The notes: a model not told the origin generated them from the sequence alone. Counted from the stretch's first letter, positions 18,420 through 60,458 are shown. The stretch: 64,000 nucleotides of DNA from Chloroflexota bacterium (GCA_016875735.1 VGOW01000011.1:9288-73287); one strand, 5' to 3'. Numbers and translations: made by a program.

Positions 18420-19166
18420 GTGAGCACCGGCAAGCCACCCAGAGATCGCAGCTCAAACAACCCTGCAATGCCAAACGACGACTTCGTCTGGACAGTCCGC
18501 ACGTTCATCTACCAGCATTTTGCGGCGACGACGCGCGCGCCGGGGCTCGGCGAGATCGCCCGACACTTTGGCCTGAGCGCCGGGCAAGCGGGCGAAACCC
18601 TCACGGCGCTTCACGAGAAGCACGCGCTCTTTCTCGAACCGGGGACGCTCGACATCCGCATCGCCAATCCCTTTTCGGCCATCCCCACTCCGTTCGAGGT
18701 GGAAGCGGACGGCAAAAGATATTGGGCCAACTGCGCCTGGGATAGTTTCGGCATCCCCGCCGCCCTGCACGCCACCGAGGCCGCCATCCGATCGGTGTGC
18801 GCTCACAGCGGAGCGCCGCTGTCGTTGAGCGTGAAGCAAGGTCGGGCCGTGAGCAGCGGAGAAGTCGTCCATTTTCTCGTGCCGTTCCAACGGTGGTACG
18901 AAGATATGACCTTCACTTGAGCGACGATCCGATTCTTCCGGTCGGAAGAAGACTTACAGCAGTGGCAAAGCGAGCGCGGCAAGGCCGAGGGCGAAACGCT
19001 CCGCCCCGAACAAGTTTGGGAGTTGTCGCGACTGTGGTATCACAACCGCCTCTCGCCGGACTACCGGGGCCGAACGGTAGCGCAAGTGGAAGAGATTTTC
19101 CACGCGCTCAATCTCACCTCGAAGTTTTGGTACATGGACAAGCCGACGGACGAATTGCAGAAGTGA
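18420..19166 (+). CDS. alkylmercury-lyase (MerB)-family protein with in-frame UGA at 18918-18920 (candidate selenocysteine)
   Basis: The track ORF stops at the TGA at 18918. The same frame then stays open for 81 codons with no start codon, and continues the MerB fold ('ATIRFFRSEEDLQQW...'). 'NCAWD' and 'VCAHSGAPLSLSV' match the MerB Cys96/Asp99 and Cys117 regions. A hairpin lies at 18933-18950. An alternative start is the ATG at 18468. Confidence 0.7.
18933..18950 (+). promoter_or_regulatory. SECIS-like hairpin downstream of UGA 18918
   Basis: A perfect 7-bp stem TTCTTCC/GGAAGAA with loop GGTC. It begins 12 nt after the UGA. Confidence 0.6.
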
Positions 19167-20713
19167 CTGTCGGCAACAAGGCTTTTCACCACTGAGTTCA
19201 CAGAGAACACGGAGAAGACCCATAAAAATCTCTGTGAACTCTGTGGCCTCAGTGGTTCAAATGCCAGTTCTTGTGCGGGATTCGGATTCAAGAAGCGCTC
19301 TCTCAGGGCGCCGCGCAGAGCAATTCGTTCGATGCATTCGGCAGTATCGGCGGGCAACAGCGGCGGCTGATGCTGTTCGATGAGCGCGCGAGTCCGGGTG
19401 TTCACCCGACTCTCGAAAGCCAACCGCTCCGAGTCGGCCCACTCTTTATCTCCACCCCGATACAGCAATTGCGAATACCACACATCGCGCATGTGTTCAA
19501 GCGTATAGGGATGGGTGACAAATTCGCCCCTCGTTTCAACTCCGGCAAATAGATTGAGCGACAACGAGTCGGCGTCCACCGCCACCGCGCCGAAGAGGTG
19601 CGAGAGCATCGCGGCAATTTCGTCGGTCGCCGCAATCATCTCCGGCATCACCACCGTCGCGCTTCCCAGCAACCCCACATCGTGAATCAGATTCGCGCCG
19701 ACGAGGCTGGCCATCATGCACGACGAGGCCGCTTCGAGAATCGCTTGCCCGTCGAACGTCTGCGAGTCGCTGGTACCGCCGGTGCCGAAATTTGGCAGTT
19801 CGAAATAATGCGCCATCTCGGCCATCAGCGAATTGCCCAATTGAAACTCCGGCGCCCCGTATGAAAACACGGTGGTCTTCATATCCATCACCGAAGCCAT
19901 GCCGCCGAAGATGAACGGCGCGCCCGGGCGTTTGAGTTGATGCACGACCAACGCGCTGAGCGATTCGGCGCACAGTTGAGCGATGATGGCCGCCTGACTC
20001 TGCGGGGCCGTGCCGCCCATCGCCGCATACGGAACATAGGCGACGGGCAGGCCGTGTTCGGCGCAATACAACAGCTTGCCGATAGACTCATCGGGGTGCA
20101 GCAACGGGGACACCGGCTCCGCGTAAACGATCACGTTCGAGCGCGCGCGCAATGCCGAGTCGCCGCCCACCGCCAATGCGGCCATCTCTCGCATGTCGCG
20201 CAGTGAGTCGAGAGAGATGGGCATGGTCAGCACGGGCTTCGTCGAATGCTGGAGGCACTGCGCCAGCGATACGCGGTCGGCGATCTCCGGCGGGCAATCG
20301 GCAGTCAAGCCGGAGGCGGTGATGAAGTGAATGTTTGGCAGTGAGTCGGCGAGCACGGCATTGCCAATCACATCCTGTTTGAGGCATGGCCGCCGCTCGC
20401 GCGTGAACGGATCGAGCACGTCGGGCGCGTCGGTGTGCGCCCCGTAATAAATGTTGCGGCCCTCCAAGCGCATGGCCTCGCCGCCATGGCGCGCAAAAAT
20501 CGAAATCGCGCTCGGCGCGCACTCCACTGCTTGCACGATCAAGTGCGGCGGAATGAAAACGCGGTCGCCTTCGATGCGCGCGCCCGCGCGCCGCAAAAGT
20601 TCGCGGGCTTCCGGCTCGGTGAGGCGCACGCCGATTCGGTCGAGCAAGTTGTGCGCGGCTTCGGCGATGGCTTCGCGCTCTTCGCCGCTCAAAAGGTGAA
20701 GTGTCGGTTTCAT
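19061..20713 (-). CDS. MttB-superfamily (trimethylamine methyltransferase family) protein, non-pyrrolysine type
   Basis: Full-length similarity to the MttB family ('PVAYVPYAAMGGTAPQS', 'GTGGTSDS'). There is no in-frame TAG. The C-terminal ~85 aa runs through a hairpin repeat and is antisense to the merB-like 3' end, so the native stop appears to be lost. Confidence 0.8.
   Translation of the reverse strand: MKPTLHLLSGEEREAIAEAAHNLLDRIGVRLTEPEARELLRRAGARIEGDRVFIPPHLIVQAVECAPSAISIFARHGGEAMRLEGRNIYYGAHTDAPDVLDPFTRERRPCLKQDVIGNAVLADSLPNIHFITASGLTADCPPEIADRVSLAQCLQHSTKPVLTMPISLDSLRDMREMAALAVGGDSALRARSNVIVYAEPVSPLLHPDESIGKLLYCAEHGLPVAYVPYAAMGGTAPQSQAAIIAQLCAESLSALVVHQLKRPGAPFIFGGMASVMDMKTTVFSYGAPEFQLGNSLMAEMAHYFELPNFGTGGTSDSQTFDGQAILEAASSCMMASLVGANLIHDVGLLGSATVVMPEMIAATDEIAAMLSHLFGAVAVDADSLSLNLFAGVETRGEFVTHPYTLEHMRDVWYSQLLYRGGDKEWADSERLAFESRVNTRTRALIEQHQPPLLPADTAECIERIALRGALRERFLNPNPAQELAFEPLRPQSSQRFLWVFSVFSVNSVVKSLVADSHFCNSSVGLSMYQNFEVRLSAWKISSTCATVRPR
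19187..19258. repeat. imperfect palindromic repeat element between convergent genes
   Basis: CCACTGAG-TTCACAGAG...CTCTGTGAA...CTCAGTGG. Confidence 0.7.
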
Positions 20714-20719
20714 GGGGAC

Positions 20720-21874
20720 TCACAATCCGGCCAACGCGCTCCGCAAGTCGGCGATCAAGTCATCTTTGCTTTCCAGCCCCACCGAGATTCGGATCAACCC
20801 GGCGCTCACTTCGAGCGGCGAGCCTTGCGTGCTGGCGTGAGTCATCGCCGCCGGAATCTCGATGAGCGATTCGATGCCGCCGAGCGACTCGGCCAATGCA
20901 AACAACCGGGTGCGCTCCGCCACCCGCCGCGCCGCGTCGGCGCCGCCGCGCACCACAAACGAGATCATGCCGCCGCCGTTTCGCATCTGCCGCATGGCTA
21001 ACGCGTGCTGAGGATGATCGGGCAGGCCGGGATAGATCACCTCGTCCACTGCCGGGTGGTCGGCAAGAAATTGGGCGACGGCCAGCGCGTTCCCGGCGTG
21101 GCGATCCATGCGCACCGGCAGAGTCTTCACCCCGCGCAGAACGAGCCAGCAATCCATCGGGCCCGGCACCGCGCCGATGGCGTTCTGCAAAAACTTCAGC
21201 CGTTCGTGAATCGCGTCGTCGTCGAGGATGGCCGCGCCGCCGATCACATCGGAGTGCCCACCGAGATATTTGGTGGTGGAGTGCGCAACGATATCCGCGC
21301 CGAGTTCGAGCGGTCGTTGCAGGTAGGGGGTGGCGAAGGTGTTGTCCACGCCCATCAGCGTGCGCGGGCCGTTGGCGTGCGCGAGGTCGGCGATGGCGCG
21401 GATGTCGAAAATTTTGAGGCGCGGGTTGGTGGGTGTCTCCAGCCACACCAGCCGCGTGTTCGGGCGCAGGCCGTCGCGCACAGCGGCGAGATCGGTCATC
21501 TCCACAAACGTGTATTCGATGCCATAGTCTTTGAGAATTTTGTCGAGAAGCCGGAACGTGCCGCCGTACACATCGTTGCCCGCCAGCACGTGTTCGCCCG
21601 CCGCCGCCAGCCGGAACACGGTATCGATGGCGGCCATGCCCGACGCAAAGGCCAGCCCGTGCTTGCCGCCTTCGAGCGCGGCGAGGCAGGCTTCGAGCGC
21701 CGCGCGCGTGGGGTTGCCCGTGCGCGAATACTCGTAGCCTTTGTGTTGGCCCACCCCATCCTGCACGTAGGTTGAGGTTTGATAGATCGGCGTCATCACC
21801 GCGCCGGTGGATGGATCGGGCTGTTGCCCGGCGTGGATAGCGAGGGTTTCGATGCGGTAGTGGTGATCAGTCAT
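20720..21874 (-). CDS. PLP-dependent cystathionine gamma-synthase/gamma-lyase family enzyme
   Basis: Contains 'YSRTGNPT', 'NTFATPYLQRPLELGADIVAHSTTKYLGGHSD' (PLP-Lys) and 'RISVGLE'. The ATG is at 21874. Confidence 0.9.
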   Translation of the reverse strand: MTDHHYRIETLAIHAGQQPDPSTGAVMTPIYQTSTYVQDGVGQHKGYEYSRTGNPTRAALEACLAALEGGKHGLAFASGMAAIDTVFRLAAAGEHVLAGNDVYGGTFRLLDKILKDYGIEYTFVEMTDLAAVRDGLRPNTRLVWLETPTNPRLKIFDIRAIADLAHANGPRTLMGVDNTFATPYLQRPLELGADIVAHSTTKYLGGHSDVIGGAAILDDDAIHERLKFLQNAIGAVPGPMDCWLVLRGVKTLPVRMDRHAGNALAVAQFLADHPAVDEVIYPGLPDHPQHALAMRQMRNGGGMISFVVRGGADAARRVAERTRLFALAESLGGIESLIEIPAAMTHASTQGSPLEVSAGLIRISVGLESKDDLIADLRSALAGL

Positions 21875-22008
21875 TGTGCGCGCAACGGTGGGCGGGGAGT
21901 GGCGGACGACCGTGATCGTCCGCCCCACCATCCACCGTCAAACTGAAATGTTCTCGCAATATGCCTTTGTCGCCCCGACAGGGTGTTTATTGTATAATCG
22001 TTCGGAGC

Positions 22009-25080: not shown

Positions 25081-27822
25081 GTGGATCTCTCTGCCACCAT
25101 TCGCCTGCTCGGCGACCTGCTCGGCGAGGTGATCGCCGAACAAGAGTCCCCCGCCATCTTCGAAGCCGAAGAGCAAATCCGCGCCCTGGCCAAAGCCCGC
25201 CGCGGCGGCGACCCCTCCGCCGCCCTCCGCCTTCCCACCGAAGTCGCCTCCCTCTCGCCCGAATCATCGCGCGCCATTGCCTCGGCCTTTGCCCTCTATT
25301 TCGATCTCATCAACCTCGCCGAAGAATCTCAGCGCGTCAGCGCCCTCCGCCAGCGCGAACGCGACCGCCACCCCGAGCCCACTGGCGAGTCCGTTGCCGA
25401 AACCATCGCCGCGCTCAAACAACGCGGCCTCACCGCCGAGCAGGCGCGAGCGCTCCTCGAAAACCTCAGCATCGAACTCGTCCTCACCGCTCACCCCACC
25501 GAAGCCAAACGCCGCACCGTCCTCTCCAAACTCGAACGCATTGCCCGCCATCTTCACTTTCTGCGCGAGAATGACCCCCTGCCCCGCGAGCACGCCGACT
25601 CCATCGCCGCGCTCCGCGCCGAGATCACCGCCCTGTGGCTCACCGACCGCGCCCGCACTGCCCGTCCCGCCGTCACCGACGAAGTGCGCACTGGCCTCTA
25701 TTTCGTTGACGACATTTTTTGGGACGCGCTCCCGCGCATTTACGCCGACCTCGACTCCGCGCTCGCCGAACACTATCCCGATCTGACCGCCCCCTCTCGC
25801 TGGCTCACCCTCGCCTCGTGGGTTGGCGGCGACCGCGACGGCAACCCCAACGTCACCGCCCCCGTCACCGCCGAAACCCTGCGCCTCCATCGCGGCCTCG
25901 CCGTCGAAAAGCATCGCCGCGCATTGCAAGACCTCGCCCGCCGCCTCAGCATCAGCGACCGCCGCATCCCCATGCCGCCCGATCTGCGCGAGTGGCTCGA
26001 CGCCCGTCGGCCTCTCCCGCCGCACGTGGCCTACCTCGAAACCCGTTACGTCCACGAACCGTTCCGCCTCGCCATCGCCCTCCTCGCCGCCGATCTCGAA
26101 TCCGCATCGAAAGAGGACATGACCGCGCGGCTGCTCGACGCCGCGCCGCACACCGCCCGCGTCCGCGCCGACGACTTCACCGCTCTGCTCGATCTCATCA
26201 CCCACGCCCTCCCCCGCTCAATTACGCATAACCAATTACTCACCCTCCACCGCCAGTTCGAAATCTTCGGCCTCCACGCCGCCCGCCTCGATCTCCGCGA
26301 AGACTCGTCTCGCCTCAACGCCACCCTCGCCGAAACATTGCGCGCCCTCAAAATCGATTTGCAATTCGACTCGAAAGATGATCGCGCCCGCGCCGAACTT
26401 TTGAGTCGGCTGCTCGACACTACGGGCGGGTCAGAGGCCCGCCCCTACGGCCCCGACAATTTGGCCGCCCTGCCCGCCGCCACCGCCGACTCCGCCGAAA
26501 CGTGGGCGCTCTTCCGATTGCTCGCTCGTGTTCACGCCGTGTATGGGCGCGACCTGCTCGGCCCGTTCATCGTCTCCATGACTCGCGGCCCCGCCGACCT
26601 CCTCGCCGTTCTGCTCATGGCCCGCTGGAGCCATTGCGCCGACGGCCTCAGCATCGTGCCGCTGTTCGAGACTCTCGACGACCTCGCCGCCGCGCCGCGC
26701 ATCCTCGCCGATCTCTTTTCGCTCGACTCATACCGCGCGCACCTCGCCGCGCTCGGCAACGAGCAAATCGTGATGATCGGCTACTCCGACAGCAACAAAG
26801 ACGGCGGATACCTCGCCGCAAACTGGGCGCTGTATCAAGCGCAAGAGCACATCGCTCGCGTGTGCCGCGAACACGGAGTCCGCCTCACCCTGTTTCACGG
26901 GCGGGGCGGCACGGTGGCCCGGGGCGGCGGTCCCGCGAATCGGGCTATTCGAGCCCAGCCGCCCGCCACGGTCAATGGCCGCTTCCGCCTCACCGAGCAG
27001 GGGGAGACCGTCGCCTCTCGATACTCTGATCCCGTTCTCGCCCATCGCCACCTCGAACAGATCGTCAGCGCCGTCCTCCTCGCCTCCGCGCCTATCGCCA
27101 ATTACCAATCACCAATTACCAATGAGTGGCGACACGCCTTGTCAGCCATGTCCGCCGCCGCCCACGCCGCCTATCGCGCGCTCGTCTTCGAGACTCCCGG
27201 CTTCATCGAGTTCTGGCAAACCGCCACACCCATCGACGAGATCAGCCGCATGAGAATCGGATCGCGCCCCACCGCCCGCCGCGCCGGGAAACTCGAAGTG
27301 CACAACATCCGCGCCATCCCGTGGGTCTTTTCGTGGATGCAGAGCCGCTTCAACCTGCCCGGCTGGCTTGGGTTGGGAACGGCAATCTCAAATCTCAAAT
27401 CTCAAACTCCAAACTTCAAAGAGATGTACGAGGGTTGGCCCTTCTTCCGCGCATTGCTTGACAATGCCGAAATGTCGTTGCTCAAAGCCGATCTCGGCAT
27501 CGCCGCCCTCTACGCCGATCTTGTGCCCGACCGCGAACTGGCCGGCCGAATCTTCGCCCTCATCCGCGATGAATACGAACGCACCTGCGAGGCCGTGCTG
27601 GCCGCCTCCGGCCACACCGAACTGATGGACGCCGACCCCGTGATCCAACGATCCGTTCAGCTCCGCAACCCTTACGTCGATCCATTGAACTACCTGCAAG
27701 TGGAAACGCTCCGCCGCCTGCGCGCCTTGCCCGAAGAACAGCGAGAGGGGGCCGAAGCCCTCCACGATGTCATGATCCTCACCATCAACGGCATTGCCGC
27801 CGGGTTGAGGAACACGGGCTAA
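25081..27822 (+). CDS. ppc: phosphoenolpyruvate carboxylase
   Basis: Contains 'VLTAHPTE', 'VMIGYSDSNKDGG', 'LFHGRGGTVARGGGP', 'FSWMQSRFNLPGW' and the C-terminal 'NGIAAGLRNTG'. GTG start. Confidence 0.95.
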   Translation: MDLSATIRLLGDLLGEVIAEQESPAIFEAEEQIRALAKARRGGDPSAALRLPTEVASLSPESSRAIASAFALYFDLINLAEESQRVSALRQRERDRHPEPTGESVAETIAALKQRGLTAEQARALLENLSIELVLTAHPTEAKRRTVLSKLERIARHLHFLRENDPLPREHADSIAALRAEITALWLTDRARTARPAVTDEVRTGLYFVDDIFWDALPRIYADLDSALAEHYPDLTAPSRWLTLASWVGGDRDGNPNVTAPVTAETLRLHRGLAVEKHRRALQDLARRLSISDRRIPMPPDLREWLDARRPLPPHVAYLETRYVHEPFRLAIALLAADLESASKEDMTARLLDAAPHTARVRADDFTALLDLITHALPRSITHNQLLTLHRQFEIFGLHAARLDLREDSSRLNATLAETLRALKIDLQFDSKDDRARAELLSRLLDTTGGSEARPYGPDNLAALPAATADSAETWALFRLLARVHAVYGRDLLGPFIVSMTRGPADLLAVLLMARWSHCADGLSIVPLFETLDDLAAAPRILADLFSLDSYRAHLAALGNEQIVMIGYSDSNKDGGYLAANWALYQAQEHIARVCREHGVRLTLFHGRGGTVARGGGPANRAIRAQPPATVNGRFRLTEQGETVASRYSDPVLAHRHLEQIVSAVLLASAPIANYQSPITNEWRHALSAMSAAAHAAYRALVFETPGFIEFWQTATPIDEISRMRIGSRPTARRAGKLEVHNIRAIPWVFSWMQSRFNLPGWLGLGTAISNLKSQTPNFKEMYEGWPFFRALLDNAEMSLLKADLGIAALYADLVPDRELAGRIFALIRDEYERTCEAVLAASGHTELMDADPVIQRSVQLRNPYVDPLNYLQVETLRRLRALPEEQREGAEALHDVMILTINGIAAGLRNTG
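27098..27125. repeat. heptamer array (CCAATTA/CCAATCA) in frame in ppc
   Basis: CCAATTA CCAATCA CCAATTA CCAATGA, encoding 'ANYQSPITNE'. Confidence 0.7.
27385..27421. repeat. heptamer array (CTCAAAT/CTCAAAC) in frame in ppc
   Basis: ATCTCAA ATCTCAA ATCTCAA ACTCCAA ACTTCAA, encoding 'ISNLKSQTPNFK'. Confidence 0.7.
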
Positions 27823-30150: not shown

Positions 30151-30190
30151 GAGCAATTGGTGATTAGCGATTGGTGATTGGCGATGGGCG
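30151..30190. repeat. heptamer array (GATTGGT/GATTAGC) spanning the YfhO stop and the intergenic region
   Basis: GGTGATTAGCGATTGGTGATTGGCGATGGGCGG. It encodes the YfhO C-terminus 'PSPITNR'. Confidence 0.65.
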
Positions 30191-32257
30191 GCTAGCGACG
30201 AACAATGCGATGTAAATCGTGAGGGCGATGATGGAGATAATCGCGCCAACGATGAATGCCACAGGGCGATAGTTCAGTTCAATAGTCGCCGGGCCAGCGG
30301 GGACGGGAATAGCGATTAGAAACGCGTCGGCTTCGAGGGCAGGCGCGGGTTGGCCGTTGACGGTGGCAACCCAGCCGGGATAGTAGGCTTCGCTGACGAC
30401 GAGGAGCGCGGGTGAATCAGCAGTGACGGTGAAGGCGAGGCGGCCCGGAGAATCTTCGAGGGTAGAAGGGGCAGGCGCAGCGGCGAATGGCCGCTCCGCG
30501 TTGCGAATGGCGAATTGTGGATCGCGGATGATAGCAGTGGTGAAGGGATCGAAGGCGGGGGTTTGCAGGGCAGCGAACACCGAGTTGCGGTCGGCGGCGA
30601 TTTGAGCTTGATGCACGAGCCACGCGCGGCGCGGAATCTCGAACATGCGATAGACTTTCGCATCGCCTTTGGGGGCCGCGCCCTCGGCCACGCGCTCAGC
30701 GGGCGGCAGTTCGTTTTCGCGAGTGAGCGCTCCGTTCTTCCACGTGATCAAATACTTCATGCCGATCACTTTCCAGCGCAAACTTTCTGGCGCGCGTTCG
30801 TCGAACTCGGCCCACGCCGCCGGACGAATGGGCGAGATGCCGCCCCACTCTTTGAAGCCGTAGCCGCAGGCAAAGTGGCCCTGCATTCGGGCATCATCCT
30901 GCACCCGAAAGAAAGGGGCGGGATCGGCGCGGATGGGATCGAGGATGGAAAAAGGAGGATACGGGTCGAAAGGCGCGACGAGGTTCGACGCAGTTCGGTT
31001 GGAATAGAGATCGATGACGGTGGCGGCCGCCACCGCGAGGGCGACGATCACTGCGGGGAGCCGGGTCCGCGCGCTGATCGATCTCAGTAGTTGATCGAAT
31101 CCCAATGCGGCGAGGATCGCTATCGAAAACGAAACGAGCGCGGCAATGCGCTCTTGCCCGCGAAAGAGGCGATAGCCGGGCAATAACCAGTAGGCGATAG
31201 AGTACACAGGCGTGTTGCCGCCGAACGAAAGAAGGAGGCCGACGACGGCGACGGCGAGCCAGAAGGCGGCCCTCACCCCCCGAAACGCAATAGCCAGCAT
31301 TGCCAACGCCAGCGGCGCGAGGCCAATGTACAACGGGCTCCACATCGGATCGGTGAAGAGGAATTGTTTGACGATGCCGAGAGGGAAGCCGCGAGAAAGT
31401 TCCTCGAAGGAGAGCGAGGCGCGAGTGGAGAGGGAGAGGTATTGCGCCTGCGGCAAAAGCTGCACGAGCGAAAGGCCGAAGAGCAAGCCGAAGATCGCGG
31501 CGAGGCGAGTCAGAGTCCAGCGCCACGGGCGGCCATCGAGCGCGGCGCGATGGATGAAATACGCAATGGAAAGGTAGGCGACGAAGAGAAAGGTTTGAGG
31601 GTGCCCGGCGAAGAAGGCGAGGGCGAGCGTGAGAGCAGGCCAGATTGTGGAGCGAAGAGCGTGGGGCGTGGGGCGTGAAGCGGAGAGGCGGCGAAGGGAG
31701 AGGAGGAGGAGCGGAAGCCAAACAATGGTTTCGAGGATGGCTGTTTGCAATGGCGGGTAGCCGATGAGGTAGCCGCCGTAGGTGAAGACGATGGCGCCGA
31801 GGAGGGGAGGGAGATCGCAGATTGCGGATGGCTGATTGCTGATTGCCGCTGGCTGATCGCTGAGTTCGGCGCGGAGGAAGAGGAAGGTGAAGAGGCTGGC
31901 GAGGAGGTAGTGAGAGGCCGCTTCGAGGGTGAGGGCGAAGAGGGGGAAGTGGCCGTAGCCTAACAGTTTCAGAATCGCATAACTGATCCAGATTGGCGGG
32001 TAGAACAGTTGCGATTGCGGATCGGCGTGAAAGGGATAACCGGCAAAGAAGCAGTCGGCCCACAGCGGCAGGCGCCCCGCGGCGAGGGCGCGATAGGCGA
32101 TGTTGCGGAAAACAAAGAACTGCTGGGTGAAGTCGCCGTCGGGGAAGGAGGCTTGCCCGGCGAGGTAGCGCCAGAAGAAGAGCAGCCAAAGGGCGAGGAG
32201 AAGGATGAAGGATGAACCCCCTGGCGAGGGCAGGTGATGAAGGATGAAACGGCGCAT
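30164..32257 (-). CDS. YfhO-family membrane protein (putative glycosyl/glycopolymer transferase)
   Basis: Contains 'FPDGDFTQQFFVFRNIAYRALAAGRLPLWADCFFAGYPFHADPQSQLFYPP' and has a polytopic profile. I moved the start to the ATG at 32257 because the first 12 track codons are repeat-derived. Confidence 0.7.
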   Translation of the reverse strand: MRRFILHHLPSPGGSSFILLLALWLLFFWRYLAGQASFPDGDFTQQFFVFRNIAYRALAAGRLPLWADCFFAGYPFHADPQSQLFYPPIWISYAILKLLGYGHFPLFALTLEAASHYLLASLFTFLFLRAELSDQPAAISNQPSAICDLPPLLGAIVFTYGGYLIGYPPLQTAILETIVWLPLLLLSLRRLSASRPTPHALRSTIWPALTLALAFFAGHPQTFLFVAYLSIAYFIHRAALDGRPWRWTLTRLAAIFGLLFGLSLVQLLPQAQYLSLSTRASLSFEELSRGFPLGIVKQFLFTDPMWSPLYIGLAPLALAMLAIAFRGVRAAFWLAVAVVGLLLSFGGNTPVYSIAYWLLPGYRLFRGQERIAALVSFSIAILAALGFDQLLRSISARTRLPAVIVALAVAAATVIDLYSNRTASNLVAPFDPYPPFSILDPIRADPAPFFRVQDDARMQGHFACGYGFKEWGGISPIRPAAWAEFDERAPESLRWKVIGMKYLITWKNGALTRENELPPAERVAEGAAPKGDAKVYRMFEIPRRAWLVHQAQIAADRNSVFAALQTPAFDPFTTAIIRDPQFAIRNAERPFAAAPAPSTLEDSPGRLAFTVTADSPALLVVSEAYYPGWVATVNGQPAPALEADAFLIAIPVPAGPATIELNYRPVAFIVGAIISIIALTIYIALFVASRPSPITNR
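31813..31865. repeat. heptamer array in frame in YfhO
   Basis: GATCGCAGATTGCGGATGGCTGATTGCTGATTGCCGCTGGCTGATCGCTGAG, encoding 'SDQPAAISNQPSAICDL'. Confidence 0.65.
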
Positions 32258-32328: not shown

Positions 32329-34659
32329 TCAGGGAAGGACTCTGATCTTCGATAGATACACAAAATTGTCGGTGAGGCGGCCATCGGGCAGGAGGAGCTG
32401 CAGGCGAACGCCGCGCTCATCGTAAAGCCCTACTTCCACATCATACACGCCGGGCGGAGTGTCAAACTTGAGGGGGAGCACACGAATATCGGCCACGATT
32501 TGATTCGGCGCCCATGCCGCAGTGGGGGCCGCGCCGTCGAGCGGCCACGAATCGGATTGCCCCCACAACGTCTCGCCCGCGCCGCGCACGTGCGCAAACA
32601 CTGAATAATTTTTCGCCATCGGTTTCAACCCGCGCCAGTGCAGTGTGAGCGTGAGCGACTCACCGGGCGAGAGCGCGCGGCGATCCATGTCGTAGCCGAT
32701 CAATTCGATCTGCCCGCCGAAGTTGAACGATTGGGGATTGGGGGCACTGCCGGGGTTGGCGGCGATGGCGAGGGGCGAGAGCGTGAGCGCGTCGCGTCCG
32801 GCATCCGGGCCGCCTTCGGTGGCGACGAGCAGTCGGTCGCCCGTCGCGTAATCATAGAGGCCGATCTCGATGGCCGCCTCGCTCGGCGCATATGTTGTCG
32901 GCGGAATGGTGGTCACATATGTGTCAGCCAGCGTTCGCCCCACCTCCCATTTGCGCGTGGGCATGAGGCCGAGTCCGGGAAACGTGTCGCGCTGGGCGAC
33001 GACGATTTGATTCTCGTCGATGACGTGAACGAACACGCTCCAATCTCTGTCCATGGCAACGAGCGATTGCCAATAGAGGATGAGGGTGAGTTGTGAGCCG
33101 GGAGTGGCGAAGGCGGAGTCGAGAGAATAGCCGAGCAGGCGCATCTCGGCGGGGAAGCCCGGCGCGCCGAAGTCCACATTGGCGCGGTGAGGGATGGCGG
33201 CGATTTGATCGGGCGTGAGCGCGGGGGGGTCGGCGTAGGCAGGGGCGATGAAGGCAAACGGCGCAACAACGGTGACGGCGGCCATGAAGAGAATGATGGC
33301 GGCGAGGGCGAGGGGGCGAATGCGAGTCGGCAGGATGGTTCGCAACCCGAGGGCGATCAGCACACCGATGGCCGAGAGGCCGGAGAAGATGAGTCGGCCT
33401 TGCGATGACCACGTGATCGTTGCCCACTGAATGAGGCCGTAGCCGATGAGGGCGAGGTGGCCGAAGAGCAACAGATAGCGGGCGGCAAATGGCGAATGGC
33501 GGGTAGCCGATGGCAAATGACGAAACAGCGTGATGGCGCTTTGGACAATGAAGAGGGCGAGGCCGATGAGGGCAACGAGGGCGATAGTGTTGAGGGCGGT
33601 GTAAATCCAATCGCTCATGGGAATGTTGACGCCGCCGAAGAGGCCCCAAAAGGAGCGAGTGAAACTTTCGCGCTCGCCCCACAATTGGAGGAGTGAGGCG
33701 GGCGCGGCGCGCTTGCCCAGCACGGCGATGAAGGCATTCCAGCCGAGCAGGTCGCCGTAGAGAGTGAGGTTGCGGTAATACCACCAGGAGGGGAGGAGGA
33801 GGGCGGGAATGAAGATCAATGAACAATGAACAATGAAAGAATGAACAATGGCAGAATGAGCGCTGATCGCTGACGGCTGAAGGCTGATGGCTATGAGGGT
33901 GAGGCCGGTGAGGGCGAAGAGGCCGAGGGCCGATTGTTTGGTGAGGGCGGCGAGGCCGAGCAGGAGGCCGAGGGCAAAGGACTGTTGATTGGTAATTGGT
34001 AATTGGTAGTTGGCAACCGCTGATGGCTGACTGCTGACCGCTAACCGCTGACCGCTGATGCGAACGAGAATGAAAAGGATGGCGGCGGAGAGGAGCGAGG
34101 CGAGGTTGTCATTGTTCACGGCGCCGGAGATGAAGGCAAACATGGGAATGAAAGCGACGAGCCCGGCGGCGGCGAGGCGCGAAGGCTCGTCGTCGAAAAA
34201 CTCGCGGGCGGTGAGATAGGTGAACAGCACTGTGCCTGCGCTCATCAACACCGAGAGGAGGCGGATGAGGCGCACGGCCAACACTGCGCCTCGCCATGGG
34301 AAGTTTTCGGCGGAGGTGTGAACAACGAGATTGGTGTTGCCATCGGGTGTGATCACGCCGTTGTCAACGTGCGGGTTGAGCCAGCGCACTTGCGGCATGT
34401 CGCTCGTGTCGATCCACGCCGTGGCCCAGCCCATGAGGTAATAATAGAGCGGCGGCTGGCTGGCTTCTTGCCGCCACGGGCCCACGTTGGCCGGGTCTTG
34501 CACCGGCAGCGCCCCACCCCGCGAAAGATGCTGAACCATCGGGTAATGCCAGAGTTCGTCGGAGGCTTCGAAGAGGGGCGTGGCGACAGCGTAGACCGCG
34601 CCGGTGATGAGAAAAGCGAGGAGAAGCCAGATGACGGGCTGGCGCTTCACAATTTGCAT
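32329..34659 (-). CDS. GT-C fold glycosyltransferase family 39 (ArnT/PMT-like) membrane protein, second copy
   Basis: Contains 'PLFEASDELWHYPMVQHL' and the same duplicated C-terminal module as 27831..30146. I chose the ATG at 34659 because the longer track ORF overlaps the upstream gene. Confidence 0.8.
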   Translation of the reverse strand: MQIVKRQPVIWLLLAFLITGAVYAVATPLFEASDELWHYPMVQHLSRGGALPVQDPANVGPWRQEASQPPLYYYLMGWATAWIDTSDMPQVRWLNPHVDNGVITPDGNTNLVVHTSAENFPWRGAVLAVRLIRLLSVLMSAGTVLFTYLTAREFFDDEPSRLAAAGLVAFIPMFAFISGAVNNDNLASLLSAAILFILVRISGQRLAVSSQPSAVANYQLPITNQQSFALGLLLGLAALTKQSALGLFALTGLTLIAISLQPSAISAHSAIVHSFIVHCSLIFIPALLLPSWWYYRNLTLYGDLLGWNAFIAVLGKRAAPASLLQLWGERESFTRSFWGLFGGVNIPMSDWIYTALNTIALVALIGLALFIVQSAITLFRHLPSATRHSPFAARYLLLFGHLALIGYGLIQWATITWSSQGRLIFSGLSAIGVLIALGLRTILPTRIRPLALAAIILFMAAVTVVAPFAFIAPAYADPPALTPDQIAAIPHRANVDFGAPGFPAEMRLLGYSLDSAFATPGSQLTLILYWQSLVAMDRDWSVFVHVIDENQIVVAQRDTFPGLGLMPTRKWEVGRTLADTYVTTIPPTTYAPSEAAIEIGLYDYATGDRLLVATEGGPDAGRDALTLSPLAIAANPGSAPNPQSFNFGGQIELIGYDMDRRALSPGESLTLTLHWRGLKPMAKNYSVFAHVRGAGETLWGQSDSWPLDGAAPTAAWAPNQIVADIRVLPLKFDTPPGVYDVEVGLYDERGVRLQLLLPDGRLTDNFVYLSKIRVLP
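33815..33895. repeat. heptamer arrays (TGAACAA; GCTGATC/GCTGACG) in frame in GT39 copy 2
   Basis: AATGAACAATGAACAATGAAAGAATGAACAATGG...GCTGATCGCTGACGGCTGAAGGCTGATGGC. Confidence 0.7.
33985..34062. repeat. heptamer arrays (GGTAATT; GCTGACC) in frame in GT39 copy 2
   Basis: TTGGTAATTGGTAATTGGTAGTTGG...CGCTGATGGCTGACTGCTGACCGCTAACCGCTGACCGCTGATG, encoding 'ISGQRLAVSSQPSAVANYQLPITNQ'. Confidence 0.7.
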
Positions 34660-44078: not shown

Positions 44079-45541
44079 CAATGCGGCCTCATCAAACCGC
44101 CCCGCGTGCAGTTCTGAATTTCCACTTCCGCGCGGTCGGCTCCGGCGGCGCTCTGCGCGAGGCGGCAGATCCGCAGAGCCATTGCGGCCAATGCCTCTTC
44201 CGATTGTTGGCCGTCGGATTCGAGCATGGCGCGGAACTTCGGTTCGGTGCCGGAGTAGCGCAAGTTGATGCGCGTGAGGCCGGGCGTGGAATCGAGCGCC
44301 TGCTTTTCCATGCCGTCGAGCGATGCGCGATCCAATCGCGGCCCGCGCCCCACATCCGCCGACGCGATCACTTGCGGCGTTTTGCCGATTCCGGCGGCGA
44401 ATTCGGACATCGATCCGGCGCGGCTTTCGACGAAGGCGCGAATGACGAACAGCGCGGTGCGCATTCCGTCGCCGGTCGAGTGTTCGCTGTCCAACAGCAC
44501 CACGTGCCCCGACTGTTCGCCGCCGAGTCCGATCATCGCCTTCGGCGTCACCGCCGTTTGTAGGCTCATCAATTTTTCCACAACGTATTTATCGCCCACC
44601 GGAGTCTCGTGAAATTTCAATCCCGCTTTTTCTACGAACGCTTTCAATCCGCTGTTGCGCATCGTCGTCGTCACCACCGCATGAGCCATGAGCATTCGCC
44701 GCCCTTCGAAGTAACGCGCCAGCATCCCCAGCATGTGATCGCCGTCCACCACCCCGCCCTGCTCGTCCAAAAAAATCACGCGGTCGGCGTCGCCGTCGAA
44801 AGCGATCCCGAACTTGGCTTCATAGCTTCGCACCAGCCCGCCAATCTTCTCCGGCCTCTGCCGCACGAATTCTGATCCGGCCTCCGCGTTGATATTGAGT
44901 CCGCTGGGCGAGGCATGCACGGCGGTGACTTGCGCGCCCAGCCGGGAAAACAGGTCGGGCGCGAAACGGGAGGCGGCCCCGTTGGCGCAATCCACCACCA
45001 GCGTAACGCCGTCGAGCCGCAGATCGGGATGCTCGGCCAAAAGCGACTCGATGTATCGCTCGTGCATCCCGCGCGAATCCATCACCCGCCCCAAACGCTT
45101 GGCCGCCGAAAACGTCGGCGGCGGATCGCCGGGCTGAGGGTCGGCCAACGTTTCGATCTCTTCCTCAACCGCCTCCGGCAATTTGATCCCCGATGCGCCG
45201 AAGAACTTGATTCCGTTTTGCTCCACCGGGTTGTGCGAGGCGGAGATGACCGCGCCGGCATCGGCGTTGAGGCGGCGCACCATCCACGACACGCCGGGCG
45301 TGGTGATCACGTCGGCGTCGAGCACATCGACTCCGGCAGACAACAAACCGGCCGTCAACGCGCTCTGCAGCATCGGCCCCGATTGGCGCGTGTCGCGGCC
45401 CACAATGACCGACGGGCGTTTGCTGGCGCGACTCGCCAGCACGGCTCCGGCAGCCTGCCCCAATCGCAGAGCAAACTCGGGCACGAGCGGCCACTCGCCC
45501 ACCGTTCCCCGAATTCCATCCGTGCCAAAAAGACGCGGCAT
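44078..45541 (-). CDS. glmM: phosphoglucosamine mutase
   Basis: Contains 'LFGTDGIRG', '[15 protein letters not shown]' and 'FDGDADR'. Confidence 0.9.
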
Positions 45542-45547
45542 AGCGAC

Positions 45548-47481
<1,934 letters not shown>

Positions 47482-50559: not shown

Positions 50560-50769
50560 ATGCGCGAGGACGACGAACACAAAAGCATCCCGGTGATCAT
50601 CGTTTCGATCCGCGCCGATCCGGCATTCCGCCTCCGCGCCCAAGAATTGGGCGTGTTCCGGTATTTGCTCAAGCCCTTCTCGCCCACCGTCCTCCGGCAG
50701 GAGATCGAACTTGCGCTCGGAGTCAACTGGGAGAAATACTGGTCGGGCACATTGGCGCGGAAATCGTAG
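50560..50769 (+). pseudogene. C-terminal fragment of a response-regulator receiver (REC) domain
   Basis: 'SIPVIIVSIRADPAFRLRAQELGVFRYLLKPFSPTVLRQEIELAL' corresponds to REC beta4-alpha5. The phospho-acceptor Asp half is absent, because the upstream sequence is the moeA 5' end on the other strand. Confidence 0.6.
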
Positions 50770-54960: not shown

Positions 54961-55701
54961 TTATACCAACTTGGTCAGCCTCACTTTGCGCAGCAACTGC
55001 GCCTGTATTCCTTGCCGGATGAACGGCGCCGCCCCGCGCCCCGCGCGCGACAGCGCCTCCACCAATCGCAGTGACGTTTCCTCGCCGACGCTCCGATGCT
55101 CCCACTCCTCGCTGACACACTCGATCAGATCATCCGCGTCGTCGAACACATCCACCCATTCGAACCGGCGGGGCGCCGGGGCCGCGAACCAACCCTCATT
55201 CAGAATTTGATCCACCGCTGCGCTGGCCTGCGCGTGACCCACCGGGCCGTCGCCAACCCAGGTGAGGCCGCCGCACCGAGTCTCGCCTCCACTGCGATCT
55301 CGCACCCACACTTCCGGCTCATCCGCCACCGGGCGAATGTCGAGCACAAACCAGCGCGCCACTCGCCATGCTTCTCGGAGGGCATGAACCATGCCCGACG
55401 GCTGCACTCATCAAAGCGACCAGCCGAACACCGCCAGATCGAAACTCGACTCGGAGAAAGGCAATCGCTCGGCCTGCCCGTGCGCGAGGCGCGCGTTCGT
55501 GTCTTTGAGCGACTCGGCGCGCGCGGCGATCAACTCATCCCAATCCGAGTCGAGCGCAACCGTCAACGCCGTCTCCCGTAGATAATGGCGAATCATGCGC
55601 CCATCGCCCGCGCCGATCTCCAACACCCGCGCGCCGCGAAAGTCGGCCAGCGCGTGAAGGACATCATGCTCAAGTTGTTCGGGATTCGGGAAGTCTGTCA
55701 T
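54961..55701 (-). CDS. class I SAM-dependent methyltransferase interrupted by two consecutive in-frame UGA codons (recoded gene or pseudogene)
   Basis: Track ORFs 55411..55701 and 54961..55407 are in the same frame, separated only by TGATGA (55413-55408). Motif I is 'VLEIGAGDG'. '...FDLAVFGWSL-**-VQPSGMVHALREAWRV' is colinear with the usual MTase core, with no gap. A hairpin lies at 55380-55396. Confidence 0.55.
55380..55396 (-). promoter_or_regulatory. SECIS-like hairpin downstream of the UGA-UGA doublet
   Basis: On the coding strand this reads GGGCATG-GTT-CATGCCC, a perfect 7-bp stem. It starts 11 nt after the second UGA and 14 nt after the first. Confidence 0.45.
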
Positions 55702-55762: not shown

Positions 55763-56359
55763 ATGACTCAGCGCATCTTTCACGGCGACATCACCCCCGA
55801 CGATCTGGCGACTGCCCTTGAGGGCGAATTCAATCGCGGCGATCTGCGCGTCACCCGTTCCGGCGGCGGCGATGAGGCCGTCGTCAACATTCACACACCC
55901 TCACGCCGCTCTTCCGGCGGCTCCACGGCCCTCAGCATGACCATCCAAAAACACGAAGACGGAGTCCTCGTTGCTTTGGGCGATCAGGAATGGCTGGGAG
56001 TAGCGGCATCGCTGGGGCAGACCGCGCTCTCGGTGTTCCAAAATCCAATGAACATCCTTGGCCGGCTCGACGATGTGGCCGCCGATGTGGATTCACTCAA
56101 ACTGCCGGAGAAGGTGTGGGAGGCCATCGAGCGGTTCGTCAAAAGCAAAGGCGCATCGAAACAGATTTCGGAGCGGCTCCGAACGACTGCCTGCCCGTAT
56201 TGCAAGGCCGCCAACGCAGTGGGCGCGACCTCCTGCGTGCAGTGCGGCGCTCCGCTCGGCAGTGTGCAACCCGGCTCGTGCGCCAACTGCGGTTTCGTGA
56301 ATGTGAAAGAGGCCAAGTTCTGCGCCAACTGCGGAAACAAACTGAAGGATGAAGGATGA
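55763..56359 (+). CDS. double zinc-ribbon domain protein
   Basis: C-terminal 'CPYCKAANAVGATSCVQCGAPL...CANCGFVNVKEAKFCANCG'. Confidence 0.7.
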   Translation: MTQRIFHGDITPDDLATALEGEFNRGDLRVTRSGGGDEAVVNIHTPSRRSSGGSTALSMTIQKHEDGVLVALGDQEWLGVAASLGQTALSVFQNPMNILGRLDDVAADVDSLKLPEKVWEAIERFVKSKGASKQISERLRTTACPYCKAANAVGATSCVQCGAPLGSVQPGSCANCGFVNVKEAKFCANCGNKLKDEG

Positions 56360-56376
56360 AGGCAGAAGGATGAATG
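56345..56376. repeat. heptamer array (GAAGGAT), left arm flanking the four-helix-bundle pseudogene
   Basis: GAAGGAT GAAGGAT GAAGGCA GAAGGAT GAATG. It overlaps the zinc-ribbon gene stop. Confidence 0.7.
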
Positions 56377-56623
56377 TCAGACCTTTCTGCTTTTCACTTT
56401 CTTGATAATTGTGACGAAGATGGCGATGAGTTGATCCGTTTCATCCTGCAATAGCGTCACGATAATTGGCTCCAACGGCAGTGCTTGAGCGCAAAACCTG
56501 CTTGCCCAACACCTGCGCCACCGTCGTCTTTGGCAACGCCGAATACATCTTGATGATCCGCAATGCGAAAGTCTTCGTTCGCGTCCTCAGATCCTCCGGC
56601 TTGCCTCCTGTTTCATCCTTCAT
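56377..56623 (-). pseudogene. four-helix-bundle (23S rRNA IVS-type) protein gene with an internal deletion and frameshift
   Basis: The N-terminal part 'TFALRIIKMYSALPKTTVAQVLGKQVLRSSTAVGANYRDA' stops at a TGA. The typical family C-terminus 'DQLIAIFVTIIKKVKSRK' follows in another frame. About 50 central residues are missing. Confidence 0.65.
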
Positions 56624-56643
56624 TCCTCCTCCTTCATCCTTCC
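56613..56643. repeat. heptamer array (ATCCTTC), the inverted right arm flanking the four-helix-bundle pseudogene
   Basis: TCATCCTTCATTCCTCCTCCTTCATCCTTCC is the inverted complement of the GAAGGAT family. It overlaps the M20 stop. Confidence 0.7.
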
Positions 56644-58050: not shown

Positions 58051-59037
58051 ATGGAGTATCGCAACCTCGGCCCCACCGGCCTCGACGTTTCGGCGATCTG
58101 TCTCGGCACAATGCAGTTCAAGTGGACAGCCGATGAGTCGGCTTCGTATGCCGTGCTCGATTCGTTTTACGAGTCGGGCGGCAACTTCATCGACACCGCC
58201 GACATTTACTCGAACTGGGCGCCGGGCCTCTCCGGCGGCGAAGCCGAAACCGTCATCGGCGAATGGATGAAACGCAAAGGCAACCGCAGCAAAATCATCC
58301 TCGCCACCAAAGTGCGCGGCAAAATGTGGGATGGCCCCGACGGCGAAGGCCTCAGCCGCGCTCACATCATGCGCGCCGTCGAAGACTCTCTGCGCCGACT
58401 GCAAACCGACACCATTGACCTCTATCAATCGCACTGGCCCGATACCGACACTCGAATTGAAGAAACCATGCGCGCCTTCGATGATTTGGTGAAGCAGGGC
58501 AAAGCGCGGTTCGTCGGCTGTTCGAACTACAGCGGCGATCAATTGGCCGAAGCCCTGCAAGCCTCCAAGCGCGACGGGCTGATCGAATACACCACCATTC
58601 AACCCCACTGGTCGCTCGTCGAGCGGCAGAAGTTCGAACTCGAAACTTATCCCACCGTCAAAATCTACGGACTCGGCATCATTCCCTACAGCCCGCTCGG
58701 CCGCGGCTTCCTCACCGGTAAATACCGCGCCAACAAACCTCTGCCCAAGAGTCTGCGCATCGAAAGCGTGAGACCCCTGCTCAACAACAAGAACTTCATC
58801 CTCCTCGACAAACTCGAAGCCATCGGCAAAGCGCGCGGCAAGAGCATCGCCCAAATCGCGCTCGGCTGGCTGCTTGCCCGCGATCAAGTGGTGTCGGTCA
58901 TCATCGGCGCGAACACCCCCGAGCAGCTCGCCGACAGTCTCGGCGCATCGGGCCTGCGCCTCACCGACGACGAGATGTACGAACTCAACCGACTCACCTC
59001 GTGGGCCACGGGCATCCTCAGCACGCCGGTATCGTGA
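58051..59037 (+). CDS. aldo/keto reductase
   Basis: Contains 'LGTMQFKW', 'FIDTADIYS', 'LATKV', 'IDLYQSHWPD' and 'IPYSPLGRGFLTGKY'. The ATG is at 58051. Confidence 0.9.
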   Translation: MEYRNLGPTGLDVSAICLGTMQFKWTADESASYAVLDSFYESGGNFIDTADIYSNWAPGLSGGEAETVIGEWMKRKGNRSKIILATKVRGKMWDGPDGEGLSRAHIMRAVEDSLRRLQTDTIDLYQSHWPDTDTRIEETMRAFDDLVKQGKARFVGCSNYSGDQLAEALQASKRDGLIEYTTIQPHWSLVERQKFELETYPTVKIYGLGIIPYSPLGRGFLTGKYRANKPLPKSLRIESVRPLLNNKNFILLDKLEAIGKARGKSIAQIALGWLLARDQVVSVIIGANTPEQLADSLGASGLRLTDDEMYELNRLTSWATGILSTPVS

Positions 59038-60458
59038 ACCTCCTCCTCGCCTGCTACGAACTCGGCCACCAACCGCTCAGCCTCGCCTGGCCGCTGGCCT
59101 TCCTCAAACGCGCCGGGGCCGAAGCCATCGCGCTCGATCTCGCAGCCCAACCCTTCTCGGACGAACTTGCCGCGCAGGCCCGCTTCGTCGGCATCGCCGC
59201 GCCCATGCACACCGCCCTGCGCATCGGCGTGGAAGCCGCCGCCCGCGTGCGCGCCCTCAACCCCCGCGCGCACATCTGCTTCTTCGGTTTGTATGCCTCG
59301 CTCAACGAGGATTATTTGCTCGAGGGCATCGCCGATTCGGTGATCTCAGGCGAATACGAAGAAGCGCTCACGCAGTTGATCATCGCCATCCGGTCGGGGA
59401 ACCGCCACCCCGCTCAAGTGCCCGGCGTATCCACTCCCGACTCCCGCGCCCACCCCGCCCTCAACCGTCTCCCCTTCCCTCTCCCCGAACGATCATCATT
59501 GCCCGCGCTCGATCATTACACTCGCTATCGAAACAACGGCCACATCCAACTTGCCGGATACACCGAAGCCAGCCGGGGTTGTTTGCACACTTGCGCTCAT
59601 TGCCCCATCGCGCCGGTGTACGGCGGTCGCTTTTTCGTCGCGCCAATCGAAACCGTCCTCGCCGACATTCGCCAGCAAATCGACTCGGGCGCGCAGCACA
59701 TCACCTTCGGCGACCCCGATTTTCTCAACGGCCCGCGCCACGCCCTCGACATCGCCCGCGCCCTGCGCGCCGAGTTTCCTCAAGTCACTTTCGACTTCAC
59801 GGCCAAAGTCGAACACATCATCAAACACCACTCGCTGTTCCCCCAATTCGCCGAACTTGGCTGCGCGTTCATCACTTCGGCCATCGAATCGCTCAGTGAT
59901 GTTGTTCTGCAGAGGCTCGCCAAAAGCCACACCGCGGCCGACATCGAAACTGCGCTGGGCATCCTCGACTCGGCGGGCATCGCCCTGCACCCCACGCTCG
60001 TCGCCTTCACCCCCTGGACGACGCTCGACGATTACCTCGCGCAGATCGAATGGATTCACGCGCGCGGACTCGCTCATCACATCGCGCCCGTGCAGCTGTC
60101 CATTCGACTCCTCGTCCCGCCGCGCTCCGCCCTCCTCAATCTGCCCGACACCCCGCATTGGCTCGGCCCATTGGACTCCGCCAACTTCACCTACCGTTGG
60201 TCGCACCCCGATCCGCGAATGGATAAACTCCACTCTCAAATTTCCGCTCTCGTTGAAGAGGCCGAACTCGCCGACGAGCCTGCTCCACTCGCCCACAACC
60301 GAATCCGCGAAGCGGCCTTCACCGCCGCCGGGCTTTTCGCCCCCCCGCCCTCTCCGTCTCACATCCCCCGCCCCGCCCCTCCGCGCCTCACCGAAAACTG
60401 GTTCTGTTGAGCAGAGCCGACACGAGATCAGGTTGGTCTTTTAGCGAATGGCGGATAG
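59034..60458 (+). CDS. radical SAM enzyme with a C-U-A-E-P tail (in-frame UGA at 60408-60410; CUAEP/CCAEP-tail radical SAM selenoprotein family)
   Basis: Cluster motif 'SRGCLHTCAHCP' (CX3CX2C), plus an N-terminal B12-binding-like domain. The track ORF ends '...TENWFC' at a TGA, and the next codons read A-E-P. The frame continues 15 codons to the TAG at 60456. The GTG at 59034 overlaps the AKR stop (GTGA). Confidence 0.75.
60424..60440 (+). promoter_or_regulatory. SECIS-like hairpin downstream of UGA 60408
   Basis: GAGATCA-GGT-TGGTCTT, a 7-bp stem that includes two G-U wobble pairs. It starts 13 nt after the UGA. Confidence 0.5.

Follow-up and report, generated by a model that had tools for sequence, protein, structure and literature searches.

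The selenocysteine insertion sequence (SECIS) of E. coli fdhF comprises an in-frame UGA, 11 nucleotides (nt), an upper helix and a GGUC loop that starts 19 nt after the UGA, a sequence that we verified in 5,419 of 5,426 E. coli genomes. A recent review tabulates 119 prokaryotic selenoprotein families, including SaoL with a CU motif (C, cysteine; U, selenocysteine or Sec), MduS with CxxU, several families with UxxU and one with UxxxxU, and it also catalogues Sec-containing arsenite methyltransferases (PMC13188914). Sec162 of SaoL corresponds to the catalytic Cys159 of MerB, and the CUAEP/CCAEP radical S-adenosylmethionine (SAM) family has been described as an uncharacterised selenoprotein family with a CU motif (Haft & Gwadz, bioRxiv 10.1101/2022.07.06.499078); the latter is not among the 119 families of the 2026 review (PMC13188914). 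For the UxxU pairs of Group 4 [NiFeSe] hydrogenases, a single downstream SECIS has been proposed to serve both UGAs (PMC13582414). Here we compare with these systems three in-frame UGA sites in a 64,000-nt stretch of DNA from a Chloroflexota bacterium (GCA_016875735.1 VGOW01000011.1:9288-73287; hereafter the window, with positions counted from its first letter). We judge it probable, at roughly 80%, that all three are true recoding sites of the SelB/SECIS type and lie in unrelated selenoprotein genes of this Chloroflexi bacterium, which encode a MerB-fold protein (site 1), a CUAEP-tail radical SAM protein (site 2) and a methyltransferase with two directly adjacent UGAs (site 3).

UGA codons and hairpins in the window

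An earlier note on this DNA had proposed that the three sites obey one layout, a UGA followed by 11-14 nt, a 7-bp stem and a G(G)U loop. The coordinates, spacers, stems and loops that it gave for all three are exact in the sequence, and both the reading frame and the homology do continue beyond the UGA at sites 1, 2 and 3. The genes and their candidate signals are listed below.

18468..19166, + strand: predicted selenoprotein gene with a MerB fold (alkylmercury lyase family) and read-through at TGA 18918 (Pfam MerB across the UGA)
18918..18920, + strand: site 1, in-frame UGA, predicted Sec at the MerB Cys159 position (alignment to MerB)
18933..18950, + strand: site 1, candidate SECIS hairpin TTCTTCC-GGTC-GGAAGAA with a 12-nt spacer (5' arm 18933-18939, 3' arm 18944-18950)
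18935-18948, + strand: site 1, conserved hairpin core CTTCC-GGTC-GGAAG
59034..60458, + strand: gene for a CUAEP/CCAEP-tail radical SAM (seleno)protein, with read-through at TGA 60408 (NF040546)
60408..60410, + strand: site 2, in-frame UGA, predicted Sec in the CU tail motif
60424..60440, + strand: site 2, candidate SECIS hairpin GAGATCA-GGT-TGGTCTT with a 13-nt spacer and two G.U pairs (arms 60424-60430 and 60434-60440)
54961..55701, - strand: class I SAM-dependent methyltransferase gene, read through TGA-TGA (Pfam and full-length homologues)
55413-55411 and 55410-55408, - strand: site 3, tandem UGA-UGA, predicted Sec-Sec (aligned with Cys-Cys of homologues)
55396..55380, - strand: site 3, candidate SECIS hairpin GGGCATG-GTT-CATGCCC, with spacers of 14 nt from the first UGA and 11 nt from the second (arms 55396-55390 and 55386-55380)

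All three sites share with fdhF the in-frame UGA and a short helix within the coding sequence, and the GGUC loop of site 1 is identical to that of fdhF. The window helices differ in being shorter and simpler, with a core of 5-7 bp, and in lacking both the bulged U and the long lower stem. Their spacers measure 12-14 nt from the (first) UGA, compared to 11 nt in fdhF, and at site 3 one hairpin would serve two adjacent UGAs, unlike in fdhF. The loop GU occupies nt 20-21 past the UGA in fdhF and falls between 19 and 22 nt past it at the three sites, with its first nucleotide at the following distances.

fdhF: +20
Site 1: +21
Site 2: +22 (+21 where an orthologue has a GUU loop)
Site 3: +22 from the first UGA and +19 from the second

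Each of the three sites has the stem-loop expected of a bacterial selenoprotein gene, about 11 nt after the UGA and with G or GU in its apical loop. Their common grammar is that of the canonical bacterial SECIS, in compact form, and is not peculiar to this genome.

The layout is rare at other TGA trinucleotides. Defined strictly as TGA, 11-14 nt, a 7-bp stem and a 3-4-nt loop with an initial G, it matches 6 of the 2,011 TGA trinucleotides on both strands of the window. Four of the six belong to the three candidate sites, which leaves 2 of the roughly 2,007 others, and when the loop is restricted to G[GT]T the four are the only matches that remain. The motif might have been just as frequent after terminal TGA stops, a test that the earlier note had put forward, and we found it after 0 of 31 other terminal TGAs and at 3 of 3 sites (Fisher p = 1.7e-4, and 7e-9 against all TGA; both values are optimistic, as the strict pattern was defined after the sites were seen). 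A relaxed pattern with a 6-bp stem, applied to 554 kb of independent related loci, gave 73 matches, 66 of them at the corresponding UGA in members of the three families, with a background of 7 in 17,646 TGA (4e-4). These explicit pattern scans of the window and the related loci took the place of a covariance model, which is of little use because the shared element spans only 17-18 nt and 5-7 pairs with a variable spacer and loop, so that useful E-values are unattainable in 128 kb. Rfam returned no family at the three sites, either at the gathering threshold or at E values up to 5, and none in the window. A codon-usage scan for additional in-frame TGA sites in the window yielded only same-frame neighbours with different Pfam families, or antisense frames.

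Outside the three sites TGA behaves as a normal stop codon in this DNA (G+C content 61.5%). It is the commonest stop in the window and ends 34 of 56 crudely called genes, in agreement with the claim that many genes here terminate at TGA, several of them inside ATGA or GTGA overlaps; we count six such NTGA overlaps.

59034-59037, 1762-1765, 14702-14705, 6821-6824, 46516-46519 and 44078-44081: NTGA start/stop overlaps

Together with the restriction of the hairpin to the three sites, this stop usage supports the preference voiced in the earlier note for site-specific recoding over a global reassignment of TGA.

The three gene families

Site 2 offers direct evidence that one of the hairpins is selected as RNA. 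The read-through protein scores 683 bits against NCBIfam model NF040546 (cut-off 500) over profile positions 2-467 of 468, carries its CxxxCxxC motif as CLHTCAHC and ends in ...NWFC-U-AEPTRDQVGLLANGG, i.e. a CUAEP tail. The public gene call stops at 458 amino acids (aa), and among the 120 nearest homologues 76 end at ...WFC, truncated at the UGA, while 43 read CCAEP. Six further Sec-type orthologues were recovered at the DNA level (L002, L095-L097, L099 and L100), all of them with a 13-nt spacer, a helix of 6-7 bp and a GGU or GUU loop. In the alignment of the seven hairpins 93.9% of the cells are paired, and four of the seven pairs have changed on both sides in a compensatory manner. The covariation score is not reached in any of 500 shuffles, and the pairing falls to 22-55% when the partner column is slid. 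Site 2 is a member of a known family, to which we add the evidence that its SECIS covaries.

The next best model for the site-2 protein is ArsL (NF040542), to which it shows a resemblance by score (300 bits) that does not reach the cut-off of 450. As(III) is bound in ArsL by a Cys-rich C-terminal tail. The GTGA start of the site-2 gene overlaps the stop codon of an upstream aldo-keto reductase gene, a pairing that recurs in L001-L004 and L099, and a double heptamer repeat array lies directly 3' of the gene.

At site 1, Pfam MerB (PF03243) matches the read-through protein with 107.6 bits (threshold 27) over residues 85-207, a span that includes the UGA. In the alignment with solved MerB structures, the equivalents of Cys96, Asp99 and Cys159 are C, D and U. 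The public gene call ends at 18920, which gives a product of 150 aa that is 100% identical to P0022 (FJ030_05250 [Chloroflexi bacterium]). Identical contigs are also present in JGI sample 3300020221. The family as a whole has 892 database matches, almost all of about 150 aa with the invariant end ...FT, and relatives occur in at least 587 genomes in a scan of one genome per species. The best 80 loci come nearly all from Chloroflexota (Anaerolineae, Caldilineaceae, Thermomicrobiales and Ardenticatenaceae). In 80 of these 80 loci tblastn homology crosses the TGA to residues 196-232, and the homologous codon is TGA in 72 of the 72 loci in which the site could be placed, TGC and TGT being absent. 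P0025 (L098:43-732), the one database entry of the family that is 'full-length', was rejected as a Trp-containing full-length homologue, since its DNA has TGA; the Trp stems from a JGI gene call on a 1-kb contig to which an alternative genetic code was apparently applied.

The hairpin downstream of this UGA is conserved at synonymous positions. CUUCC-GGUC-GGAAG is invariant across the family and 58 of 71 sequences have a sixth pair, whereas the seventh is not conserved (a C-A mismatch in 17 of 71), so that the core amounts to 5-6 bp only, a caveat to the 7-bp grammar. Within the hairpin, Arg is encoded by CGG in 36 of 36 cases, compared to 4 of 43 at a control invariant Arg of the same genes (p = 3e-18). 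Ser is TCG in 43 of 43, compared to 21 of 43 at a control invariant Ser (p = 1e-8), and Phe is TTC in 43 of 43, compared to 31 of 43 at a control invariant Phe (p = 2e-4). These frozen synonymous positions demonstrate conservation of the site-1 hairpin at the RNA level.

The closest described relative, SaoL (NF040728), shares with the site-1 protein the MerB fold, the predicted Sec at the Cys159 position and the equivalents of Cys96 and Asp99. Identity with SaoL was rejected: the protein reaches only 41 bits (cut-off 140), and its neighbourhood is unrelated and contains neither the SAO nine-gene set nor the mer set. It also differs from SaoL in its T-U-A motif (C-U in SaoL), in an extra conserved C-terminal extension and in its spread, with relatives in at least 587 species genomes (nearly all Chloroflexota among the best 80) compared to about 50 anaerobes for SaoL. 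The MerB equivalog models NF033555 and NF009710 give 43 and 42 bits, below their cut-offs of 200 and 193. Within a known selenoprotein superfamily, the site-1 protein represents a very widespread clade that is not yet catalogued.

The genomic context of site 1 is variable. None of the 13 tested window neighbours of the gene, including an adjacent MttB-family gene, occurs in more than one of the 80 loci. A Pfam profile of 97 open reading frames (ORFs) flanking 49 site-1 loci revealed mixed housekeeping families, with a lineage-specific HMG-CoA reductase in nine ORFs, and no mer genes, which are also absent from the window. Here the gene sits within an apparent methylated-amine catabolism cluster (8548-21931), a context that is not kept in other genomes. 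The cluster contains two amine oxidases, GCV_T, an IclR regulator, a creatininase, an amino-acid ABC transporter, a Cys/Met pyridoxal phosphate enzyme and the MttB-family methyltransferase, which is of the non-pyrrolysine type and at 292 bits falls under the trimethylamine equivalog cut-off of 525. One Chloroflexia metagenome-assembled genome carries tandem MerB-like paralogues (L085:2702 and L085:3439), each with an in-frame TGA and a (C/U)CUCC-GGUC-GGAGG hairpin. The gene was also found in a genome binned as Gemmatimonadota (L087) and in one binned as Acidobacteriota (L029), which suggests transfer or mis-binning.

Site 3 lies in a gene that public gene calls split into ORFs of 96 and 133 aa. 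Read through, the protein scores above the gathering thresholds of Pfam Methyltransf_25 and Methyltransf_11, has a SAM-binding motif of the GxGxG type (EIGAGDG) and aligns with four full-length homologues (P0001-P0004) at 52-59% identity over 97-100% of the query. Its WSL-UU-V segment aligns with WSL-CC-V of these homologues, and more distant ones have CC there too. Cys and Sec alternate at the DNA level as well: the TGATGA form is present in three lineages (that of the window; L001-3; L005-7 with L094), TGATGC in two (L004 and L092) and TGCTGC in one (L093). The hairpin GGGCAUG-GU(U/C)-CAUGCCC is found in register in every U-containing orthologue, where only the loop varies, and is missing in L093, the sole Cys-Cys form for which DNA is available. 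The hairpin sequence is translated as GMVHAL, and this segment varies among CC forms (e.g. GKIPAL, GKRPAL or GVKQAL). From the UGAs to the following ATG, the five codons remain in frame and conserve V-x-P-S/L-G with synonymous changes.

This family is rare in public data. An exhaustive HMMER search with the C-terminal half retrieved only 11 cluster representatives among 1.84 billion proteins, eight of which start at M[VG][HD]AL, a trace of gene calling that resumed right after the UGAs, and a metagenome scan returned only four loci. No NCBIfam model covers the family (best match 39 bits, cut-off 155). The double selenoprotein methyltransferase MduS (NF045649) was rejected as its identity at 17 bits against a cut-off of 380; the MduS motif is CxxU (PMC13188914) and that of site 3 is UU. 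A parallel is provided by the UxxU motifs of Group 4 [NiFeSe] hydrogenases, Prx-like proteins, the FmdB family and a putative mercuric reductase, which also present a close UGA pair with Cys/Sec alternation at each position. In these double-Sec systems the two codons are spaced, in contrast to the directly adjacent UGAs of the site-3 methyltransferase. Arsenite methyltransferases of the ArsM type are SAM-dependent as well and invite comparison with the vicinal thiol/selenol pair near the SAM site of the site-3 protein, yet the latter matches no ArsM model. The table of 119 prokaryotic families holds neither a UU motif nor a family like this methyltransferase (PMC13188914). Site 3 is a rare, uncatalogued family, and its adjacent UGA-UGA is the one really unusual feature of the three sites.

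The AlphaFold2 model of the CC form P0001 (pLDDT 92.7) forms a single continuous methyltransferase fold, whose CC dipeptide (residues 99-100) falls in the loop that joins strand beta4 (89-95) to helix 103-116. The post-beta4 loop of class I methyltransferases lines the substrate side of the SAM pocket. The best PDB matches of the model are the small-molecule methyltransferases AtmM, TleD and RebM. The order radical SAM gene, aldo-keto reductase, M20 peptidase, zinc ribbon and methyltransferase is kept in the related lineages L001-L005 and L099. A functional link between sites 2 and 3 was rejected, since the methyltransferase beside the radical SAM gene in L097, from another phylum, is not a site-3 homologue; the pairing is speculation.

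Proposed recoding mechanism and alternative explanations

We propose that, when the UGA occupies the ribosomal A site, a short G+C-rich hairpin would be positioned just outside the mRNA entry channel, starting 11-14 nt downstream and presenting its apical-loop GU 19-22 nt past the codon. As its E. coli analogue does, the hairpin might tether the SelB-GTP-Sec-tRNA(Sec) complex, which could then outcompete release factor 2 and allow Sec to be inserted. The site-1 product would be a MerB-fold lyase with Sec in place of the catalytic Cys159. That of site 2 would be a CUAEP-tail radical SAM enzyme, a sister of the arsinothricin enzyme ArsL, with Sec in a C-terminal Cys-Sec motif. The site-3 product would be a small-molecule methyltransferase whose Sec-Sec lies next to the SAM site, in the loop that follows strand beta4. 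Each of the predicted Sec positions resembles a ligand for soft metals or metalloids.

A single hairpin most likely serves the two codons of the tandem site. Its reuse is geometrically plausible, because it lies 14 nt from the first UGA, near the spacing of sites 1 and 2, and after one translocation 11 nt from the second, the fdhF spacing. We lean cautiously towards a picture in which a single SECIS acts in successive cycles to yield Sec-Sec, a vicinal pair at the active site that probably binds a soft-metalloid substrate and that arose stepwise from CC through UC to UU.

This interpretation draws on conservation at two levels. In the protein alignments, Cys or Sec appears opposite the UGA in homologues of sites 2 and 3. 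In the RNA, the site-2 hairpin covaries, the site-1 hairpin is held by frozen codons and the site-3 hairpin tracks the U-containing forms. Several observations weigh against it. No close site-1 homologue with Cys was found, and the Cys/Sec correspondence there comes from distant homologues only, namely Cys159 of MerB and Sec162 of SaoL. Neither the 64-kb window nor any retrieved locus contains selA, selB, selD or tRNA-Sec, as judged from Pfam assignments and a tRNA scan. The hairpins are not thermodynamically exceptional (z = +0.29, +0.23 and -1.29 against shuffles for sites 1 to 3), and the minimum free energy fold at site 2 does not include the proposed hairpin; since the folding energies are not significant, support was taken from position-specific and comparative tests. 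Covariation is absent from the stems of sites 1 and 3, both of which are invariant, and the hairpins overlap conserved peptides (FRSE and GMVHAL), so that constraint on the RNA and on the protein is partly confounded. Finally, efficient decoding of two adjacent UGAs by one bacterial SECIS lacks a demonstrated precedent.

The alternative that survives best, which we nevertheless regard as improbable, is that the same hairpins recode UGA to Cys through SelB and a SelC*-type tRNA (tRNA-ReC) charged by cysteinyl-tRNA synthetase, with one or both codons read as Cys at the tandem site. Sequence alone cannot separate Sec from Cys at a SECIS-dependent UGA, and the existence of UC and CC forms of the site-3 protein indicates that Cys is functionally acceptable there. 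In PMC13582414, tRNA-ReC is stated to decode as Cys a UGA that precedes a SECIS (with reference to Vargas-Rodriguez et al. 2018), to be enriched in genomes with closely spaced UxxU motifs, and to accompany rather than replace tRNA-Sec. The same paper (September 2026) warns that tRNA-ReC may read the UGAs of UxxU pairs as Cys (PMC13582414). The last of the three statements speaks for Sec, as does site 1, where UGA in 72 of 72 loci would be hard to explain for a plain Cys product. No tRNA-ReC was found in the window or in the loci, though no tRNA-Sec was found there either.

A smaller chance still attaches to the UGAs being real stops, in which case the genes would be truncated, split into two polypeptides (with site 3 reinitiating at the MVHAL ATG) or pseudogenes; the hairpins would then be structures without a link to recoding, e.g. 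terminators. The products of public gene callers (150 aa, 458 aa and 96 + 133 aa) fit this explanation, TGATGA is a strong double stop, and an ATG does lie 18 nt downstream of the first site-3 UGA. However, termination would cut the MerB domain and the Rossmann fold of the methyltransferase mid-way, and the parts downstream keep their frame and their conservation in all orthologues, which come from many independent assemblies. At site 3 the codons between UGA-UGA and the ATG are conserved as amino acids, the ATG itself is buried in the stem, and UC forms carry a single UGA at the same place. The hairpins lie inside coding sequence and have no trailing U-run.

For site 3 alone, a ribosomal bypass is conceivable but very unlikely. 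As in phage T4 gene 60, the ribosome would hop from the Leu codon CUU before the stops to CUC just 3' of the hairpin, and the order of these elements does bear a superficial likeness to take-off and landing sites. Such a hop would delete the conserved CC and VxPSG(M/K)xxA segment, which aligns without gaps in the Cys forms; in addition, UC variants encode Cys at the second codon, and the site-3 layout matches that of the other two SECIS sites. A global reassignment of TGA to Trp or Gly (genetic code 4 or 25), for which only the W of P0025 at the homologous TGA could be cited, can be dismissed, because TGA is the main stop codon of a window with 61.5% G+C, six of its uses fall within NTGA overlaps, a sense TGA would join unrelated neighbouring genes (Pfam assignments), and the W is a translation-table artefact. 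We therefore return to SelB/SECIS-type recoding as the explanation of all three sites.

Surroundings and biological meaning

Beyond the three genes, the window contains short tandem arrays of 7-nt repeats with varied units (e.g. ATTGCAG, CATTGTT, TAGCAGG, GGATTGC and TCAGAGG), several of them intergenic or at the ends of genes. They are reminiscent of the heptameric STRR repeats known from filamentous cyanobacteria.

11727-11798, 17552-17618, 27098-27123, 27384-27406, 30152-30190 and 31813-31863: heptamer arrays
33817-34058, 35778-35846, 38098-38158, 56343-56374, 56612-56642 and 60456-60518: heptamer arrays

Such arrays flank an insert of about 260 nt between the zinc-ribbon and M20 peptidase genes. 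The insert, which is absent from the syntenic L001, harbors a 60-aa ORF (56441-56623, - strand) that by eye resembles the N-terminal half of a four-helix-bundle protein. Downstream of the site-2 gene, a 98-aa fragment of a major facilitator superfamily transporter (61509-61805, + strand) abuts a convergent chemoreceptor gene and ends at a TGA that has neither a hairpin nor an in-frame continuation; it is probably a gene remnant. A response regulator by relA (50560-50769, + strand) is 69 aa long compared to 142 aa in the syntenic L001 and L002, and may be truncated or differ in its start. The window contains no tRNA genes.

BSepDB lists Dehalococcoidia with 46-49 selenoprotein genes. A selenoprotein-rich Chloroflexota organism is thus not unprecedented, yet three genes in one window do not establish one. 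The mechanism that we propose is textbook, and the shared grammar adds nothing new on how Sec is encoded. The implications lie in the families themselves. If the tandem Sec-Sec is true, site 3 would constitute a natural bacterial UU motif, of which there is none among the 119 catalogued prokaryotic selenoprotein families. Its UGA-UGA with a single hairpin presents a natural test case for the spacing tolerance of SelB and SECIS and for one SECIS firing twice in succession, a capacity that matters for the engineering of multi-Sec proteins.

The MerB-fold family of site 1 is almost always truncated to about 150 aa in public databases, and no curated model covers it. Correcting these gene calls would change the picture of the selenoproteome of a major environmental phylum, and the family would point to organometal chemistry outside mer operons. 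Collectively, Sec positions that resemble soft-metal or metalloid ligands, in a MerB active site, an ArsL-like tail and a vicinal pair, hint at selenium-assisted organometal or organometalloid chemistry in this bacterium.

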